A model generated the notes under the pieces. The model searched no databases. It was not told the DNA's origin and was given only the letters and a program-made list of their open reading frames with translations. Position numbers and translations under genes: made by a program. Below, piece after piece: positions 1-9,393 of a stretch of 30,927 nt of DNA (positions are counted from its first letter, which is position 1; every line of letters starts with the position of its first letter). Origin of the DNA: Escherichia phage ESSI2_ev129. The stretch lies in sequence record NC_049394.1. One strand, given 5' to 3'.

Positions 1-43
1 ACAGAGTAGATCGTCGGCAGCGTCAGATGTGTATAAGAGACAG
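1..43. other. Illumina Nextera adapter / Tn5 mosaic-end sequence (library artifact, not biological)
   Basis: Bases 3-43 read AGAGTAGA + TCGTCGGCAGCGTC + AGATGTGTATAAGAGACAG (index-like octamer, Nextera read-1 adapter, 19-bp mosaic end). The exact reverse complement is at 30879-30927. Confidence 0.9.
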
Positions 44-196
44 GTAGCGCCGTTTTTGTCTGCGAAAGATTTATTTTGTCTGTTCATCGCTGCGCCAGCG
101 CAGCGCCATGCGCACGATCTTTTATGTATGTTGCGTTGGGTTAATTTGTTGTCTGAAGTGCTGAGAATGCGTTCTGCTGCGTCTGAGGAAGGGTAT

Positions 197-219
197 AAAA
201 AAGCCCGCTTTATGCGGGC
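197..219 (-). terminator. Rho-independent terminator closing the minus-strand late operon
   Basis: GCCCGC(203-208)/GCGGGC(214-219) 6-bp GC stem with 5-nt loop, followed on the minus strand by a T6 run (plus-strand A-run 197-202). Lies 13 nt past the stop of the last late gene at 232. Confidence 0.55.
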
Positions 220-231
220 GTGTTGTCATGG

Positions 232-1935
232 TCAGGCAATTATACTCTGGTACTTGCTCCGGGTCTGCCCGGCTTTCGTCGCCGTCTGTGTAAACTCTGC
301 GGCATTGGTTGGAGTCCCAACGGTTGGGTGTGAATGGTTCGCACATTGCTGCGCCAGCTCTGCCAGTAAATCAATGGTATCCAGCATCATGGTCAGGGCG
401 TTGATGCTCTCACTGCCAATATGGACAGTTGCCCCCATGACCTGCTGACCGCCTGCGGCCACTGATTTACGCAGTGCGGCAATCTTCTCTGTCAGGCTTT
501 CGCCAACCTCCACGGCTACAGCACCGCCCACTTTAGTGGACTGCTGTCCTGCTATGTCCGTTTCTTCGTTTCCTTCAATACTGGCCAGCCTGTTACCTTT
601 CACCGCCTGGCTGTAATCACCGGCGCTTACCTGCTGGATGGCTCCGGCCAGCAGTGTGGCGGTTCCCAGTACTGTGGTTTTATCCGTGGCTTTCACCGTG
701 GTTTTACGGCTGACCAGTTCGCGCTGTTCCGTATCGGCTTTTACGGTTCGCGCCATCGATGTTTCACTGATGGTCTGATCGGTCTGCCTTACCCAGTCTC
801 CAGCCTGCGTCACCCTCTGGGATACTTCTTCCCGCTGCTGCTGCAATTGCTCACCGGGTTTAACGTCCGGCAGGCTGGTGCCATCCGGCAGCGTCTGCCT
901 GATAAAGGGTTTATCCGGTCTGCCTCCCGTGAATGCAACCTCAACCAGCGTCCCTTCTGGCGGAAACTGAAACATACCTGAATCATTCCCGGCCATCGGT
1001 ACCGGCAACGGCACCGCTGAATAAACAGGCGTCTGATTGTCTGGATTTCCGTCTGCGTCAAGCAGCTGCACGTCCACAGCGTAACGTGGCCGGAAAGGAT
1101 CGGCAAAGTTACCGCTTTTTACCGGCTCTGAATGCGCCACGACTCTGGCCATCTTTGGCAAATGAAGCCCGGATGCCAGTTCCGGGTAATGGCTTTCAAT
1201 CTGCCGTTGCGCCGGTGTTTTCTGCAAAGGTTTACCCGTTGCGCGGTTTCTCGGCGTCCATGTGATCGCCATCGTGTCATTCGTCAGGTGAACTTTAGTC
1301 ACGCGTTCACCGTTCATCTCCACCCCTGGCCGCATAGTCTGGATCACAGGTAATGTCACAGAGTTACCGCCAGCAGCCCCCTGGCTGAACTCTGACGGGA
1401 TTTCTACGGGACGACCGGCAAACAATGATTTTTCTGCGCCTCCGACGTAAAGCGAACCATCAGGCAACTGGTACCAGATGTAATCCTGGATGCCGAACGC
1501 CCTGCCCAGATTGTTCAGCAACTGATAGCCGGTACCGTTATGGGTGAAATGTGGGATAGGGGTATCGCTGTACTGTGCATCAGGCACACTGACCGTGATC
1601 CCGCTGTTTTCTTCCAGCCAGCCCGCAATTTCACGCAAAGTCGGGTGTTGAAACGAACATGGCCACATCCTTTCAAACACACCTACCAGCTCACGAATGA
1701 ACAGACGCTGAAAACCGTTTTCTGCGGGCTGCGATCGCTCCACATACCCCGTAAACCAGCGCAAAAGCAGATCGGTATACCCCACATCCAGCCGCACCAG
1801 TTTTCCGGTGTAATCGGTTGTTGTCTCTGCGGTGATGAAGCCCCGGCCGCAGCTGTTCAGCTCCAGTACCAGGCTGGCATCCACCAGGTGAACTTCATCC
1901 GTTGAAAGGTAAAGGCGTTTTACTGGTTTCATCAT
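232..1935 (-). CDS. Baseplate hub-spike fusion protein (gpV-like OB-fold and His-rich apex, about 290-aa N-terminal extension; VgrG-like architecture)
   Basis: 567-aa ORF. Central segment PVPMAGNDSGMFQFPPEGTLVEVAFTGGRPDKPFI resembles the P2 gpV/gp5 OB-fold; C-terminal ANHSHPTVGTPT resembles the gpV apex HxH motif. ATG at 1933-1935 overlaps the upstream stop by 1 nt. Last gene of the late operon. Confidence 0.55.
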   Translation of the reverse strand: MMKPVKRLYLSTDEVHLVDASLVLELNSCGRGFITAETTTDYTGKLVRLDVGYTDLLLRWFTGYVERSQPAENGFQRLFIRELVGVFERMWPCSFQHPTLREIAGWLEENSGITVSVPDAQYSDTPIPHFTHNGTGYQLLNNLGRAFGIQDYIWYQLPDGSLYVGGAEKSLFAGRPVEIPSEFSQGAAGGNSVTLPVIQTMRPGVEMNGERVTKVHLTNDTMAITWTPRNRATGKPLQKTPAQRQIESHYPELASGLHLPKMARVVAHSEPVKSGNFADPFRPRYAVDVQLLDADGNPDNQTPVYSAVPLPVPMAGNDSGMFQFPPEGTLVEVAFTGGRPDKPFIRQTLPDGTSLPDVKPGEQLQQQREEVSQRVTQAGDWVRQTDQTISETSMARTVKADTEQRELVSRKTTVKATDKTTVLGTATLLAGAIQQVSAGDYSQAVKGNRLASIEGNEETDIAGQQSTKVGGAVAVEVGESLTEKIAALRKSVAAGGQQVMGATVHIGSESINALTMMLDTIDLLAELAQQCANHSHPTVGTPTNAAEFTQTATKAGQTRSKYQSIIA

Positions 1936-2480
1936 TAACCCAAAGCATCATTGACGGGCTTCAGCACTTTGCGTTCAAACCACGTCAGTTTTTCTTCATC
2001 TTCTCCGGCAGACTGGCCACCGGACTGTCCCACACTACCGGCAGTCTGTTTTTTTGCGGTCGTCTTACCTGTTGCCCTGGCCTCTCGCTTTTCCTGCACG
2101 CTGATATGTTCCGCCAGTGTGAATGTCACCAGCCAGGCCATTTTCCCGTCCTGCTGGGGTGCATCCAGCATTCCGCTGAACGTTGCTTCACGAAAATTAA
2201 CAGCACGGGCAACTTCATGCGCCACGCGGTACTTCTGACGATTACCACTGGCATCGGTAGCACTGGCCAGCTCAAAAATACGCTTCAGTATTTCAGGCTG
2301 TTTAAAAGGTATTTCACCGCTGATCCGCAGTTCCTTTCCCTTTGCTCCCTGCTCTGATTTTGTTGTGGCACTGGTCTGGCCGGACTGATCTTTATCCTGA
2401 AATTGCTGTGAAACAGTCACCCGCATGTTTTTCAGTTGGATGGTTTCGCCATTAAGCGCCAGTGTCGGGATCGAAGTCAT
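1935..2480 (-). CDS. Hypothetical tail-module protein (possibly gpU-like), function unassigned
   Basis: 181-aa ORF, ATG at 2478-2480 preceded by AAAGGGAA Shine-Dalgarno; overlaps the upstream gene by 29 nt and the downstream start by 1 nt. No motif recognised. Confidence 0.45.
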   Translation of the reverse strand: MTSIPTLALNGETIQLKNMRVTVSQQFQDKDQSGQTSATTKSEQGAKGKELRISGEIPFKQPEILKRIFELASATDASGNRQKYRVAHEVARAVNFREATFSGMLDAPQQDGKMAWLVTFTLAEHISVQEKREARATGKTTAKKQTAGSVGQSGGQSAGEDEEKLTWFERKVLKPVNDALG

Positions 2481-3177
2481 GAATCATTCCCTTTATTCCA
2501 TCAAGATTATCGCCAACCAGCATCATGGCAGCTGTGTAAACGGCAGACTGCTGCGGAATGTCCTTCACCAGTTCCAGTAACGTGGTACCGGTGTCTCCGC
2601 TGGCAGTAAAAACCCACGCTCTGGCACTCTTCCCCTGTAAATCATTCAGGCCGCTGGCCACATCACTGATAAGCTGGTCACGTAGCTGCGTGAACTCGCC
2701 CAGCTGTTTTTTCAGCCCTTCGATATCAAACCCGGCACCCGCCGCCTTTTGTGCATGGCTGATTGCCGCAGCAGATAAAGCTGCCCTGCTGGTTGGTACA
2801 GACAGCGGAATGGACGCAGGTAACGCAGCGGCGGTTTTCGCAGGGATCTGCATCTTTTCAATAGCCAACGCTGCGGCGGATTGCGCCAGCCGTTTGACCT
2901 GCATGAATGCCGGGGCGGGGAAAATCCCGACCAGGTTATTCAGGCTGGCCATAAAGTTTTCCTGCGTCTGTCCGGTGACCATCATAATCACCACATCCGC
3001 ATTCCCCCCTGTTCCGGCCAGGCGTTCAGCAAGATAGCGAACGGCATTAACCGGGCTGAGATATGCCCCGTTCGCTGTCTGCTGTCCCAGCCCATAAATC
3101 CACGGATGCGCAGGGACGATCGAACAGTTCAGCGCAGCAACTGAATCCGTGAAGGCCAGACGTGCTTCACGCCACAT
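2452..3177 (-). CDS. Hypothetical protein downstream of the tail fibre assembly gene (structural or accessory, unassigned)
   Basis: Track ORF is 2452..3213; start refined to ATG 3175-3177 (MWREARL...), preceded by GGAGGTG with 7-nt spacing and 5 nt after the Tfa stop. 241 aa, Ala/Gly-rich, contains ASGDTGTTLLEL. No confident family match. Confidence 0.45.
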   Translation of the reverse strand: MWREARLAFTDSVAALNCSIVPAHPWIYGLGQQTANGAYLSPVNAVRYLAERLAGTGGNADVVIMMVTGQTQENFMASLNNLVGIFPAPAFMQVKRLAQSAAALAIEKMQIPAKTAAALPASIPLSVPTSRAALSAAAISHAQKAAGAGFDIEGLKKQLGEFTQLRDQLISDVASGLNDLQGKSARAWVFTASGDTGTTLLELVKDIPQQSAVYTAAMMLVGDNLDGIKGMIHDFDPDTGA

Positions 3178-3754
3178 TTCCAGGCACCTCCGGCCACACA
3201 ATTTCTGCCGCATCTTCCGGTTGAATACGATTCAGTAAAACGCGGTATTTTTTCCATGCGGTAAGCAGCAGTGCTTCTTCTTCGGTTGCCATGTCTAAAT
3301 CAACGGCATCCTGCAATGTGGCAATGGCGTCATTGGCCTGTTTAAGCAGGCTTTTCTTTTCGGCGTCTGCCTCGCTGACTAATGCAATTCGCATGGCCTC
3401 CGCATCATCCACCCACGCCTTACCATTCCATTTTTGCAAGGCATTAGCCGGTGCTGACGTGGTTGTCCCTTCCGGGTAAGCGCCTGGCTCGGTGATCACC
3501 AGTTCATTACCGTTTTCTGTATCAAACACCACCTCACCACGGTGATCCTCACGGGAAATCCATCTTTGCTTCTCTGAATCAAAAATCGCCACAAACCCCG
3601 CTTTGATTGCCGGTGGCTTTATCGTGGTGCAGTTAGCTGGCAGTCCGGTATGCGCAGGAATAAAAGCATCACCCGAACCAATAAATTCATTCGTATCGGA
3701 ACGCAGGTTATAAACAGTAACTGTTTGATCGGTTTCACTCATTTTAAAAGTCAT
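3167..3754 (-). CDS. Tail fibre assembly protein (Tfa / P2 gpG-like chaperone)
   Basis: 195 aa immediately downstream of the tail fibre with ATGA start/stop overlap at 3754; acidic C-terminal region (..LLLTAWKKYRVLLNRIQPEDAAEIVWPEVP) typical of the Tfa family. Confidence 0.75.
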   Translation of the reverse strand: MTFKMSETDQTVTVYNLRSDTNEFIGSGDAFIPAHTGLPANCTTIKPPAIKAGFVAIFDSEKQRWISREDHRGEVVFDTENGNELVITEPGAYPEGTTTSAPANALQKWNGKAWVDDAEAMRIALVSEADAEKKSLLKQANDAIATLQDAVDLDMATEEEALLLTAWKKYRVLLNRIQPEDAAEIVWPEVPGNVA

Positions 3755-5328
3755 TATGCGAGTCTCACTATGTAGTTAAATGCAATATTCTTAACGGTCG
3801 TTTCTGCGTTGCCCGACGCGGCGACGGTAATGGTGTGACTGTGTGCGCCAATGGCTACGGTATGAGAGTGAGCGCCAATACCTACGGTGTGATTATGTGC
3901 GCCAATGGCTACGGTGTGCGCGTGGTTTCCCGCCGAACTGGTTGCGGCTCGCCCCTGATCGCTACGTGGTACCCCCCAGTCACTACCACCTGATTGCACA
4001 TTCCCGCCATAACCAATGGTGTGCGTATGCGCTCCCGTGGTATTTGTCGTTTTCGTGCCATAGTCAAACGTAGTCGCCGTTTTAGTGCCGTAATCAAAGG
4101 ATGATGTTGGTTTTGTCCCCAAATCCGTACTGGATGCACTGGCGGTGTGGGCATGGGATTTATTGCCATCATCTTCATAGGAGAGAACTGCGCGACCGTC
4201 TGGTTTCCCTTTGATAGTCTGCCCACGCGCATCAGGAATTACGCCCGATGGATACGCGATTGCCAGTAAAGGATATGCAGCCTTATCAAAAGATTGTCCC
4301 TGCATAATTGCCCACCCTGCCGGTGGGATATCTGTTGACCACGGAAGCGGCACACCAACCGGCAGAACATCACTACGACTTAAAACGGCCAGTTCACCCA
4401 GATCCAGGCTTTTTCTTGCTTTTACCTTGTCGTTAACATCAGCAAGGTTTGCATCCTTACGCAAAAAATCACTGCTGGCCTGCTGTTCTCCCAGGCTACC
4501 TTTTGGCCGTAAATCCGTGATGTTGCCATCCACATCAATGCTGGCCACAGCAAACACATAATGCTGAACCCCGTTCTGAACATAATCAGCAAGATTTGCA
4601 GTCACCGTGATTTTGCTCTGCACATTCCAGACACTGGTCAATGTCCCTGTCCAGCACACATCCAGCCAGACTTTTACCGGCTTTGTCGTCACCGTAATAT
4701 TCTGATTCGCAGCCAGTGACGCACGCAATCCAGCCACATAACCCGTGCCTTTCGTGACAAAAAACTGATTGCCAGTTTTGGCTACCAGATAGCCGTTACC
4801 AAAAAACGCCGCCGCACCATAGATATCCATATTTTCCAGGCGCTGGCGCTCATCCATTCCGGCCATACGCGCAGTAAAATCAATCTGCCAGGTTTCAGCG
4901 GGTGTATTAATCCCGGTTTCCGTCTGTGCGCCGTTGTACTCCATCAGAAACGAGCGGGTCAGCACGTTCCCCTGTTGCCCTTCTTTTGTTTTCAGTTTCT
5001 GCTGTGATGGTGCATGGACAATCATTGCCAGCGTACCGCTGGCCTTATTGAGCAGACCGATCCAGTTAAAACTGAAATCACCCACATCTGCGCCCAGCAC
5101 TACGGAATAGACCACCCCGTTTTCATTCACCACACCGGTGCGGGTAACAGCCTGCCGGTGAACAATCTGTGCTGTCGGTGGCAACGCTTCATTGCGGTCA
5201 ACAGGTGTATCCGGGTTTAAATCCGGCACACTGGCAAAAACAAATTCGTCCAGTAGTACCGGTTCACCCGTTGCGCCCTGCTGTGCTTTCCAGTTTTCAA
5301 ACGCCAGCGTGATGGCTGTCTGTGACAT
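3754..5328 (-). CDS. Tail fibre protein with tail-collar domain and C-terminal His-x-His repeat tip
   Basis: 524 aa. Strong Shine-Dalgarno AAGGAGG upstream of ATG 5326-5328. Collar-like segment [33 protein letters not shown]-terminal repeats FDYGTKT x2 and (H-x-H-T-V/I) x5 (..[34 protein letters not shown]..), encoded by three 27-bp DNA repeats at 3841-3921. Confidence 0.8.
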
Positions 5329-5338
5329 AAAAACCTCC

Positions 5339-5926
5339 TTACAAACTCGCGCTGAATGTTGCGCTGCGGGCTTCCGTCCCTGCTAACGTCGCCGGGTAAA
5401 CCACATATTCCCCCTGATCCCACCCGGCCCGGATAACCAGGCTTTCAGACGTGATCACCTCAAACTGATAACGGCGGCATGTTCGCCCGTACTGGCGGAT
5501 TATCTGGATCAGCAGCTGCGTGTTGTCTGCAATCTGGCTGTCTGTAACCCGAACCAGAATCACATCCCAGTCGATATCCGGTTGCCGTTCTAACAGTTCC
5601 ACATAACCAATTCCCAGCCGTTCAAAGATATTGATAAACCCCTCTACTGAACCGGCATCCCGCGCATTCACGAAGGCAAAAGCCACGCGTTTGCGGAACA
5701 GGGTCAACGGTTCACCATCAAAGCGGGTGATATCCCGGTCATAAGCCAGCAGGTTCAGTAATGCCGGTGTACACGTCAGCGGATCAAACTGGTTCACTGG
5801 CCAGGTAACCCAGCCGTAAACCTCAGCCCAGAACCGCCGCGCCGTTTTCAGTAATTTCCCCGGTTCGCCTTTATTCATCCAGGAAGGCAAGACCATCCCG
5901 GCCAGCTTTTTCATGAACTCATTCAT
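5339..5926 (-). CDS. Baseplate/tail protein, P2 gpI-like
   Basis: 195 aa. Segment [25 protein letters not shown] resembles the conserved gpI motif (W.P.TCP..LLP.LA...D.WD). Position between the J-like gene and the fibre matches the P2 J-I-H order. Confidence 0.6.
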
Positions 5927-7103
5927 TCTCGATATTCACCGTCAGTGATTTCAGACGCGGCACGCTCAGTTCACTGGTAATGTCTCCCAGCGAAAATGTC
6001 AGTGATTCCGTCTGCGCAAAAGTTTTATGAATTTCCCGCCCCAGTTGCGAAAAGGAAAACCGCGAATATGGCCACGTCTTTCTGACGTCATAATCAGCAT
6101 TTTCACGAAAGGCACAGCGGATCATATTTTCAATGCCGCCTTTCAGCGTTTTCACTTCTTCGTCACTGAAGTTGTTCAGATTTTTGACATAAACCGTGAC
6201 GGCCAGATCGTGAAGCGTTTCCGGCATGGGGTAACACTGCATATCATCACCATGCCCGTGGTGCCCCAGCGTGTTGATATAGTCATTCACTGCATCCACG
6301 AACGGCGCTGATGCCACCCCACTGTCCAGTAATAAAAAGGCGTTGGCTGTTCCTGGCCCCCTCGGTGCTTCATGCTCAAAGAAAATCCGATCGATACTCA
6401 ACCCGGCAACACTGGCGATCATTGAGCGATAAACCGCATCAGTGTGGTAATTCCCCACCAGATTGAACTGATTGCGGCAACGCTCGCGCAGTTCATCATC
6501 ACTTTCCTCGTCAGCCCCCGGCACGGTCAGCCAGTTTTCCTCACTGGCCACGTGGCTGATACCACTGACCGCCACCGGCAGAATGCGGTAATATCCGGGC
6601 GCAAGGTTATATGCGCCCCCGGCGCCAGTGGCTTTCACCGGTAGCAATGCGCTGGCCGCACCGGAAGTGATCACCACATCCTCAGTGGTGGCCAGCTCAT
6701 ACACTCGCCCGTTAATGCGTTCTGTCTGGATAATCGTCCCGGCTTTGACCGTCACAACGGCCTTTGCATCTTCTTTGAAGAACCGAATCACCCCCTGTGC
6801 TGCGCTCGCCGGTTTTGCCGTGACGTTCACCGCCCAGGCCAGCAAACGCAACATGCTCCCACTGGCTGTGGCCACAAACATATTGGCCAGCACGGTTAAC
6901 ACCAGAACGTCTTTAAGCCACATCACCGGGGCGGTCACAATGGCGGTGATTAATCGCCAGAACGGTGACATGCGGGATGTATTGGTGATAATTCCCTCAT
7001 CTGCTGCAATCGCATTGAAGCGTTCCCGCACTTCGGCTTCCGTTACCGGCATACCGCTATCTTTCACCACTTCTTCAAAATCAACCTGCGGTTTTTCCGT
7101 CAT
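5919..7103 (-). CDS. Baseplate J-like protein (gp47/J family, tentative)
   Basis: Track ORF is 5919..7157; start refined to ATG 7101-7103 (MTEKPQ...), which forms an ATGA overlap with the upstream stop at 7100-7102. About 394 aa in the expected baseplate position; family call by position and size only. Confidence 0.5.
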   Translation of the reverse strand: MTEKPQVDFEEVVKDSGMPVTEAEVRERFNAIAADEGIITNTSRMSPFWRLITAIVTAPVMWLKDVLVLTVLANMFVATASGSMLRLLAWAVNVTAKPASAAQGVIRFFKEDAKAVVTVKAGTIIQTERINGRVYELATTEDVVITSGAASALLPVKATGAGGAYNLAPGYYRILPVAVSGISHVASEENWLTVPGADEESDDELRERCRNQFNLVGNYHTDAVYRSMIASVAGLSIDRIFFEHEAPRGPGTANAFLLLDSGVASAPFVDAVNDYINTLGHHGHGDDMQCYPMPETLHDLAVTVYVKNLNNFSDEEVKTLKGGIENMIRCAFRENADYDVRKTWPYSRFSFSQLGREIHKTFAQTESLTFSLGDITSELSVPRLKSLTVNIENE

Positions 7104-7429
7104 AAATCCACCTGCGCAGAGATCCCGCCAAAATCGTATGTACTCGCGGTTACCCACAGCCGCTTCTGACTCTCTTCACTGATTTCCACCGTACCCGGCA
7201 CAATGCGTTCATCATCTTCAATCAGTAATTCCATGCGGGTAAAAATATCCGCTCTCATTGTCGGACTACGTTCGGCAATTAATTCCGTCGCTAACCCACT
7301 TTCAATAATGGAATGAATAATGTCCTGCCCGATACTTTTTCGGTTATTACATAATTCAGGTTCATTACCGGTATTCAGAACAAAGTCACCGCCCTGAATC
7401 AGCAAATCGATATAAAGAACATCACTCAT
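7100..7429 (-). CDS. Small baseplate protein (gpW/gp25-like, tentative)
   Basis: Track ORF is 7100..7447; start refined to ATG 7427-7429 (MSDVLY...), giving an ATGA overlap with the tape-measure stop. 109 aa; segment SIGQDIIHSIIES is loosely W/gp25-like. Confidence 0.45.
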   Translation of the reverse strand: MSDVLYIDLLIQGGDFVLNTGNEPELCNNRKSIGQDIIHSIIESGLATELIAERSPTMRADIFTRMELLIEDDERIVPGTVEISEESQKRLWVTASTYDFGGISAQVDL

Positions 7430-9393
7430 GCGCCAAGCTCCTGCCATTCCATAAGCTGGGATGGCGAAAGTGCTTCTTTGGTATGGAAATGCACTTCACC
7501 AATTTTCCGGCTGTTATCGGTTACGGATTTACTGTTGCTGCTGATTGTTTTGCTGATACCACCTTTATCCACACCTTTTAAATCACCACCCGTTGACAGT
7601 GTATTTCCGGTTAATGGCTGCGTGGTTTCACTGGCCAGTGAAATATCCACGCCGGGAATTTTATTCAGTTTCTGAACAATCCAGTTCCACGACTTAAGAA
7701 ATCCCCCTTTGATTGACTTCCAGACATTATCAAACAGCGACATAATGCCGGAGGCCATCCCCTTTAATGCCTCAGACGGTGAAAATCCTGTCAGCAAAGA
7801 AATAAAGCTGTTCCATCCTTCACTGATATATTGCCAGGCTGAAGCAAAGATCCCCGCCAGCCATTTCACTACGGCGGCACATGTCTGGAAGGCTCCGGTA
7901 TTCATCACCGCTGCTTTTATCGTGTCCCAGTGCTTAACCAGCAGATAACAACCAGCAACCAGCAGCGCAATGGCACCAATCACAAGCAGAATCGGCCAGC
8001 TCATCAGGTTGATACCAATTCCGGCCATTATTGCGGCCATGCGTACCGCCAGTAACGCACCGCGCAAGAACTTCAGCGTGGTATTCCAGGCGATTACCGC
8101 TATTTGTGCCAGCCAGACAGTGGCCGTGTAGATTTTCGTAACCGCCGTTAACGCCACCCAAATCCCGCGCAATCCCATCATGATGAATCTGGATACCCCC
8201 ATCACGATATTGGCCACCGCACCCACGGCGGCAAAGCTCAGTAATGCCATCGACGCATAACCAATCACACGGGCAATGTTAGGAAATAACTGCATCCAGC
8301 GGGCAAAGGTCTGCCCCATATCAGCCAGGCGATTCAGAACCGGATACAGCACCGGGATCAACGTCAGTCCGATCACGGTCTGAATGGCTTTCAGAATTTG
8401 CACAAAGCGATCCCACGGCTTAACCATTTTTTGTGCCATTTCCTGGGTACGCTTCAGGCCGTCCGCGCCGCCCAGTTCGGTGATGTTCCGCTGAAGTAAC
8501 GCGACATTGCCGTAAAGCTGTTTAACCACTGCCGAACTGTCACCAAAGGCTGCATCCAGCTCCGCCTGGGCTTTCAGGTTCCCTTCAAGGCTTTTGCCAT
8601 ATTTGCCCTGCAACTTGATCAGCATTTCAGGCATGGACAGCATTTTGCCAGTAGAGTCAGTAAAGGACAGCCCCAGCTTTTTAGCGCCATCAATCGCACC
8701 GGTCATAAACCCTTCATAGGCGCTGCTGGCTTCCGTTCCCAGCGTCCGCTGAAGTTGCCCCAGCACGGCCAGCTGTTCATCCAGTCCCACGCCGTAGTTA
8801 GTCCCGACGCCGCGCGCACCTTCCATCAAATCCTTGATAGTGGCCATTTCTGTGCCAAAGGTTTTGCGCATATAAACCATCTTGCCCGCCAGTTGCTCGG
8901 CGAATTGAACCTTGCCCAGTCTGGTGGCATCGGCGGAAAAGTTACCGAACATCTGCCCCATAAATTCCGCCGTGTCCGCTGCTGTGGACTTGAGCGCAAA
9001 AGCCAGGGTATTGGCGACTTTCGTCACCTTCGGCAGTTCATTACCCGTCAGTCCGGCAATGGAAGCGTTAATATTTTCCGTGGATTTAACGAACTCCACC
9101 GCGCTGGCACCGTAGGTTGTACTGAAGCGCAGGGCATCACGCTGAACGGTCTTAAGCGCGGAATCATCAATCCCTTTTGCGGCGGCATCATTCAGCGCGT
9201 CATACATTTCAATTGCCGGTGATAACGCGCCCCTGATCGCCATTCCGACACCGGCCAGCGCCACCGCGCCGCCGCCAATCTGCATAAAGGCCGCTTTTGA
9301 TTTTTCCGCAAAGCCGGTGACGTTACCCTGCGCCTGTTTTAACGGGCGGGATAATTTATCAATCAGGCTTAATGTAAAATCTAATTGTTTCAT
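7426..9393 (-). CDS. Tail tape measure protein
   Basis: 655 aa, Ala/Gly/Leu-rich with a long central hydrophobic block (..IMGVSRFIMMGLRGIWVALTAV..ILLVIGAIALLVAGCYLLV..). Lies directly downstream of a chaperone gene with a frameshift site. ATG at 9391-9393. Confidence 0.85.
   Translation of the reverse strand: MKQLDFTLSLIDKLSRPLKQAQGNVTGFAEKSKAAFMQIGGGAVALAGVGMAIRGALSPAIEMYDALNDAAAKGIDDSALKTVQRDALRFSTTYGASAVEFVKSTENINASIAGLTGNELPKVTKVANTLAFALKSTAADTAEFMGQMFGNFSADATRLGKVQFAEQLAGKMVYMRKTFGTEMATIKDLMEGARGVGTNYGVGLDEQLAVLGQLQRTLGTEASSAYEGFMTGAIDGAKKLGLSFTDSTGKMLSMPEMLIKLQGKYGKSLEGNLKAQAELDAAFGDSSAVVKQLYGNVALLQRNITELGGADGLKRTQEMAQKMVKPWDRFVQILKAIQTVIGLTLIPVLYPVLNRLADMGQTFARWMQLFPNIARVIGYASMALLSFAAVGAVANIVMGVSRFIMMGLRGIWVALTAVTKIYTATVWLAQIAVIAWNTTLKFLRGALLAVRMAAIMAGIGINLMSWPILLVIGAIALLVAGCYLLVKHWDTIKAAVMNTGAFQTCAAVVKWLAGIFASAWQYISEGWNSFISLLTGFSPSEALKGMASGIMSLFDNVWKSIKGGFLKSWNWIVQKLNKIPGVDISLASETTQPLTGNTLSTGGDLKGVDKGGISKTISSNSKSVTDNSRKIGEVHFHTKEALSPSQLMEWQELGA

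Follow-up and report, generated by a model that had tools for sequence, protein, structure and literature searches.

The last late gene of Escherichia phage ESSI2_ev129 (NC_049394.1), a minus-strand open reading frame (ORF) at positions 232..1935, very probably specifies the piercing device at the centre of a contractile tail of HP1 type, in which a minimal baseplate hub and a gpV/gp5-type spike are joined in one polypeptide. We examined the whole 30,927-nucleotide stretch (hereafter the window), a 30.9-kb sequence that is essentially a complete temperate phage genome. The 567-amino-acid product begins MMKPVK and matches the PHROG 2258 'baseplate protein' family from residue 2 to residue 567 and across profile positions 1-544 of 544 (E 2.5e-276). 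It has 1220 database homologs, the best 120 of which are full-length. By tblastn it is 99% identical to gp01 of phage ESSI2_ev015, 40% identical to Haemophilus phage HP1 orf35 over the full length, and 39% and 35% identical to phiO18P gp46 and Vibrio phage K139 orf39, respectively. Judged by sequence, the protein is the ortholog of HP1 orf35, and we refer to it as ORF35.

An earlier note, made from the letters of the sequence, had described ORF35 as a VgrG-like fusion of hub and spike functions that closes the late gene series, with no gpV gene ahead of the W-like gene. The gene's surroundings agree with this description. A GC-rich hairpin and T-run start 13 nt past the ORF35 stop codon, so the late operon ends with ORF35; in K139 a terminator, T39, is annotated at the corresponding position. 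The same final position, following the fibre, fibre-assembly, orf33 and orf34 genes, is found in HP1, K139, phiO18P and SI7. The ORF35 ATG overlaps the TAA stop of the ORF34-like gene (TAATG). Further up the operon, the tape-measure gene overlaps the W-like DUF2590 gene, so that no gene lies between them. The fusion itself is supported by a hub fold model and by OB-fold and beta-helix homology.

By sequence homology, residues 243-567 are a spike of the gpV/gp5 type, with an N-terminal helix, an OB-fold, a beta-helix and an HxH apex. The limits of the helix and OB-fold segment, residues 243 and 352, are inferred from collinearity with P2 gpV. Pfam matches Gp5_C repeats (22.5 bits against a cut-off of 20.4) and Gp5_trimer_C to the single sequence, and single-sequence comparison with the PDB pairs residues 413-508 with T4 gp5 residues 481-576 (E 4e-7) and residues 292-355 with residues 418-483 of the VgrG 6sjl (E 0.004). 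A spike profile built from 30 diverged stand-alone C-part proteins matched the VgrG OB-fold (residues 411-457) at E 5e-8 to 4e-6 and the T4 gp5 helix at E 3e-5, and gave one uninterrupted match to VgrG 416-605, which spans the OB-fold plus the helix. The gpV/gp5-like OB-fold that the earlier note had read from the motif GMFQFPPEGTLVEVAFTGGRPDKPFI is supported by the profile match to VgrG at E 5e-8, and the motif itself is present at residues 320-345. ORF35 scored 15.1 and 16.4 bits with the VgrG family models TIGR03361 and TIGR01646, whose cut-offs are 186 and 122 bits; ORF35 is therefore VgrG-like in architecture, not a member of the VgrG family.

The proposed apex motif, ANHSHPTVGTPT, is likewise present, at residues 532-543, giving H534 and H536, and the P2 gpV C-terminus with which it had been compared (..HTHKHPGDSGGTTGSPL) was quoted correctly. 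H534, H536 and the following proline are each at least 90% conserved in the 30 stand-alone spikes, and the HxH is visible in fused relatives. The segment ahead of it looks helical from its sequence, unlike gpV. In P2 gpV, the C-terminal HxH apex binds iron. The structure of Mu gp45 also shows a metal-binding spike apex, an analog for the ORF35 motif (PMC11915804). The conserved motif and these two precedents suggest that the ORF35 HxH forms a metal-binding, perhaps iron-binding, apex.

Residues 1-228 are, according to structure prediction, a minimal hub of the gp27/gp44/gpD fold. The hub nature of this domain was revealed by fold comparison only, in which a predicted monomer model of a 245-residue query was set against known structures. 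The matches, each followed by its two comparison figures, comprised the cyanophage A-1(L) hub (18.9, 221), the MuSo2 43-kDa protein (18.9, 217), a Neisseria Mu-like tail protein (18.0, 216), the AlgoCIS spike (17.6, 220), Mu gp44 (17.6, 219), E217 gp41 (17.1, 221), the E. coli VgrG c3393 (16.7, 212), the pyocin R2 hub (15.3, 218), Afp8 (13.7, 201) and the 229-aa Pam3 hub (11.0, 184). Foldseek independently recovered the identical hub set (E 2e-12 to 1e-7, TMq 0.6-0.69). Its alignments of the 245-residue query extended over 300-377 columns, meaning that most hub targets carry extra segments without counterpart in the ORF35 hub. The comparison with hub folds that the earlier note had proposed for the N-terminal region thus returned one.

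Relatives of ORF35 place the boundary between the two parts. We collected 724 among 50%-identity cluster representatives and classified the best 150 by local BLAST. Fifteen representatives (415-612 aa) are fused, covering both halves (at least residues 2-334); 12 (226-244 aa) are N-only and cover query residues 2-226; 59 (about 276-403 aa) are C-only, with query coverage starting at 243-262; and the other 64 are fragments. In the alignment the hub part ends ..MAITW(226)TP and is followed by a variable linker, after which the C-part resumes from QRQIESHYPEL at residue 243. The linker is variable or gapped, pLDDT (the model's per-residue confidence) falls to 55-72 across it, and in split relatives the N gene ends and the C gene starts at this position. 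The stand-alone N-only and C-only relatives thus set the hub/spike boundary at residues 228/243, and the N-terminal domain is about 228 aa rather than the roughly 290 aa first proposed.

Pseudomonas phage phi3, Pseudoalteromonas phage ACA1 and Vibrio phage yong1 are split relatives, in which adjacent overlapping genes encode hub and spike separately. There the spike ATG arises in the -1 frame from xxA-TGG, the last base of one codon joined to the conserved Trp codon with which the hub domain closes (yong1 9666, phi3 3187 and ACA1 3127 in the respective records); at the same place in the window, positions 1258-1263, ACA-TGG-ACG is read through in frame. On sequence grounds, a one-base indel at the Trp codon would interconvert the split and fused forms. 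We considered a programmed -1 frameshift in the split relatives and rejected it, as the three junctions have an ordinary overlapping ATG/stop and no slippery heptamer. In trees of either module (crude midpoint-rooted neighbour-joining trees with no support values), fused proteins group apart from split ones with few exceptions, which tentatively suggests a single fusion or fission event. In yong1, the match to the window protein ends at residue 409 and a separate 65-aa gene, 'baseplate assembly protein V' (10339-10536), follows the spike, so the distal spike seems to have been exchanged or split off there.

Published work on ACA1 assigns the two modules in the same way (PMC10612066). In Table S1 of that study, HHpred is the basis for assigning gp48 to gpD ('cell puncturing device mounting domain') and gp49 to gpV, the latter by a match to 3QR8; both were found in virions by mass spectrometry, and gp47 is listed as an uncertain gpU (PMC10612066). 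A footnote to the same table of this 2023 paper states that the gpD and gpV homologs are fused in HP1. The ACA1 authors also report that the hub gene was omitted from the record of phage C5a (PMC10612066). In the phi3 record (NC_030940) we found an unannotated 232-aa ORF at 2504-3202 that corresponds to the hub domain and runs into the beginning of the 'Gp5 domain-containing' spike gene annotated at 3187-4158.

We next consider whether the window holds a second hub or spike. When 19 proteins of the late region were scanned with Pfam and PHROG, no other Phage_base_V, Gp5 or hub signal appeared, and no gpX-type LysM protein was seen among the late proteins scanned. With a hub fold predicted for ORF35 and no second spike among the 19 proteins, the outcome that would have spoken against a fusion, namely an N-terminal domain lacking a hub fold together with a gpV homolog elsewhere, was not what we found. 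When 13 P2 late proteins were compared with the window by tblastn, only the tape measure (gpT) and gpL were detectable; the P2 sheath and tube proteins (FI and FII) as well as W, J, I, U, D, V and X all gave E > 0.1. The tail module has diverged from that of P2 beyond the reach of BLAST, and the absence of gpV by BLAST is therefore uninformative by itself. P2 and ESSI2_ev129 are both classed in Peduoviridae despite this divergence of their late proteins.

The gene order of the window is of the type seen in HP1 (orf27 to orf35) and K139, not of the P2 type. Bases 8-3300 of the window share 97.9% identity with Escherichia phage ESSI2_ev015, which is placed in the genus Quadragintavirus of Peduoviridae, and the gene map of the ESSI2_ev015 record matches the order of the window ORFs. 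All late genes lie on the minus strand. Head genes are followed by R- and S-like tail-completion genes, the sheath (DUF2586) and the tube (HP1 Orf24 family), then by holin, endolysin and spanins, a tail chaperone and the tape measure; the succession of tape measure and W-like gene is common to HP1, K139 and yong1. The features from the tape measure to the end of the operon, with the segments of ORF35, are listed in the table.

Table. Late-region features of the ESSI2_ev129 window and segments of ORF35 (segment and class assignments are predictions)
Feature	Position	Strand	Remarks
Tape measure	7426-9393	-	
W-like DUF2590 gene	7100-7447	-	directly after tape measure
Baseplate_J	5919-7157	-	
Tail_P2_I	5339-5926	-	
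Fibre	3754-5328	-	
Fibre assembly	3167-3754	-	
ORF33-like gene	2452-3213	-	PHROG 1677 (unknown function)
ORF34-like gene	1935-2480	-	181 aa; predicted tube-initiator class (gpU equivalent)
ORF35-like hub-spike fusion gene	232-1935	-	567 aa; stop codon 232-234; ORF list, PHROG 2258
Hub domain, residues 1-228	1252..1935	-	predicted minimal baseplate hub, gp27/gp44/gpD fold
Linker, residues 229-242 (TPRNRATGKPLQKTPA region)	1210..1251	-	14 residues, poorly conserved
N-terminal helix plus OB-fold, residues 243-352	880..1209	-	conserved motif residues 320-345 = nt 901-978
gp5-type triple-stranded beta-helix region, residues 413-508	412..699	-	
Helical segment, HxH, C-terminal tail, residues 509-567	235..411	-	H534/H536 = nt 328-336; helix predicted
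Rho-independent terminator-like hairpin	203..219	-	GCCCGC-ATAAA-GCGGGC plus T6; ends late operon

The ORF34-like protein, modelled with an alignment of database homologs, is predicted to be of the tube-initiator class (P2 gpU / pyocin PA0626 / Pam3 gp17), with an N-domain that forms a tube-like beta-barrel and a helical extension at the C-terminus. An hhalign comparison of its family profile with the single P2 gpU sequence, a weak template, was not significant. The ORF33-like protein (241-253 aa) is conserved in HP1-type phages at 18-50% identity, and neither its single sequence nor a profile gave a match in Pfam, NCBIfam or PDB. Its ACA1 homolog was found in virions by mass spectrometry (PMC10612066). 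ORF33 may act as a filler of the plug/BH1a type between hub and wedge.

Two further features of the window lie outside the hub-spike gene's own evidence. The C-terminal ~70 residues of the fibre carry four tandem G-x-H-x-H-T-V/I repeats, similar to metal-binding HxH repeats at other phage fibre tips; a Pfam Phage_fiber repeat match falls at residues 387-400, away from them. The left end of the window, positions 1-42, is Illumina Nextera adapter and not phage DNA. On the minus strand it reads CTGTCTCTTATACACATCT-GACGCTGCCGACGA-TCTACTCT-GT, made up of mosaic end, read-1 adapter and an i5 index (AGAGTAGA) in reverse complement. Between 35 and 39 of the adapter bases also occur at the ends of records from unrelated phages (Acinetobacter, Vibrio, Listeria, lambda), and the adapter bases create a spurious 'MYKRQ...' ORF at 29-448.

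Several results weigh against reading ORF35 as a complete hub and spike. The hub domain is ~60-160 residues shorter than most of the hubs it aligned with (228 aa versus 287-387 aa, Mu gp44 and P2 gpD among them), so part of the hub's work may fall to a different protein, for instance ORF33. The N-domain family profile found no match in the PDB by sequence, hhalign of the N-domain profile with the single P2 gpD sequence gave a probability of 1.4%, and Pfam at E up to 10 returned nothing for residues 1-292, including no match of the N-domain to Phage_GPD (PF05954), the family of P2 gpD. Phage_base_V (PF04717) matched residues 309-345 at E 1e-4 and 22.9 bits, under the gathering cut-off of 23.8, while one close homolog carries a precomputed PF04717 assignment. 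The alignment of the C-part with P2 gpV, which the earlier note had suggested as a check, fell where expected and did not reach significance: the best hhalign match of the C-part family was on the OB motif (gpV 52-81) at E 0.34. As a single-sequence template is weak, this is no argument against homology. Finally, the structural evidence is a monomer prediction of the N-domain by itself, the evidence for the C-part is at sequence level, and the virion data come from the relative ACA1, not from ESSI2_ev129.

The small size of the hub would fit a two-protein, lineage-specific hub, in which ORF33 would supply in trans a C-terminal hub domain of ~100 residues that the fusion protein lacks. Also in its favour are the 300-370 Foldseek columns obtained with a 245-residue query, the conservation and synteny of ORF33 together with its presence in ACA1 virions, and the requirement of simple myophage baseplates for a plug or BH1a protein that sits between hub and wedge (PMC11915804). 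We nevertheless consider it quite unlikely, given that Pam3 builds a working hub from 229 residues, that yong1 appears to have no ORF33 homolog between its fibre and ORF34, and that ORF33 has neither a fold nor a sequence match (Pfam, NCBIfam, PDB). The lack of a Pfam family on residues 1-292, the shortness of the domain relative to classical hubs and the unassigned ORF33 could also be taken to mean that a gpV-type spike has gained an enzymatic or receptor-binding module as its N-terminal domain, with the true hub elsewhere. The earlier note had raised this as its own alternative; the hub fold returned by the fold search largely refutes it, and we reject it as highly improbable.

It is harder still to credit the long ORF as an artefact in which a frameshift error in sequencing or assembly merged adjacent hub and spike genes, and we regard this as extremely improbable. 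In split relatives the C gene does lie in the -1 frame, and the adapter at the contig end indicates raw assembly output. However, homologs of 558-581 aa with 100% query coverage occur in hundreds of independent genomes and phages, and full-length homologs are found in Salmonella, Citrobacter, Enterobacter, Cronobacter, HP1, HP2, K139 and phiO18P. The junction is in frame, the linker length is conserved, and the -1 frame of the window stops 9 codons past the Trp codon.

For ORF35 as a one-piece hub and spike, we propose a mechanism modelled on the solved simple baseplates of Pam3 (PMC9942802) and Mu (PMC11915804); trimer formation, metal binding, the order of assembly and release are all drawn by analogy. 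Three copies of ORF35 would trimerise, their hub domains forming a pseudo-sixfold ring and their three spike parts intertwining as a needle, with a metal ion on six histidines probably stiffening its tip. ORF34 hexamers and the tape measure's C-terminus would dock on the hub and start the tube, tube and sheath would polymerise next on the resulting platform, and the W-like, J-like and I-like proteins would form the wedge ring around the hub. When the sheath contracts, the tube would push the needle across the outer membrane. Since a covalent link ties hub to spike, the hub could not stay behind, and the trimer would probably be expelled as a unit, as VgrG is. A more elaborate version, which we think unlikely, is an HP1-type central baseplate of three proteins: ORF35 as covalently joined minimal hub and spike; ORF34, with its disordered, charged tail and C-terminal helix, as tube initiator; and ORF33 as a lineage-specific virion protein that replaces both LysM/gpX and the spike-gripping hub domain. 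Were it true, HP1-type phages would offer the simplest case among natural phages of a one-piece tip in the style of VgrG.

The fusion is already in print for the HP1 ortholog, and ORF35 is an ordinary member of a known architecture and lineage. As one-piece hub-spikes are well known from type VI secretion systems (T6SS) and extracellular contractile injection systems (eCIS), and the HP1 fusion has been published, general understanding is unchanged. Public records nonetheless give the ORF35 family generic or wrong names ('baseplate protein', 'hypothetical protein'), and related records carry the mislabels 'head completion protein' and 'nucleoid DNA-binding protein'. The analysis offers a parts list for the tail tip, with ORF34 as putative tube initiator and ORF35 as putative hub plus spike, that applies to widespread temperate phages of Enterobacteriaceae, Pasteurellaceae, Vibrio and Aeromonas. 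It also indicates that hub and spike may be fused or split among close relatives through a simple frame change at one codon, a natural experiment on the need for hub-spike separation during infection.

ORF35 most closely resembles its orthologs HP1 orf35 (UniProt P51739), HP2 orf35, K139 orf39, Kappa KP45 and phiO18P gp46, which are 34.6-40.9% identical over the full length, share the position after orf33/orf34 and the fused layout, and are known from sequence; they differ only in sequence divergence and in the enterobacterial host here. The split relatives (ACA1 gp48 and gp49, yong1 gp46 and gp47, phi3) have the same modules in the same order and genomic position but as two genes. Mu also encodes its hub (gp44) and spike (gp45) in separate adjacent genes, and gp44 carries an additional, flexible domain at its C-terminus, which holds both spike and tape measure. 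In cyanophage Pam3, from an unrelated phage lineage, the 229-aa hub gp19 is separate from the spike gp20. P2 likewise uses two proteins where ORF35 is one chain, gpD (hub, 387 aa) and gpV (spike, 211 aa), and encodes them in different operons (FI-FII-E-T-U-D and V-W-J-I-H-G, respectively); gpD is about 160 aa longer than the ORF35 hub domain and showed only fold-level similarity to it here. The one-piece layout is shared with T6SS VgrG and the eCIS spikes Afp8, Pvc8 and AlgoCIS Alg8, although VgrG-type hub modules are larger than the approximately 228 aa of ORF35. VgrG ends bluntly for PAAR docking and serves a secretion system, whereas ORF35 would end in a helix plus HxH and belongs to a phage tail that injects DNA.
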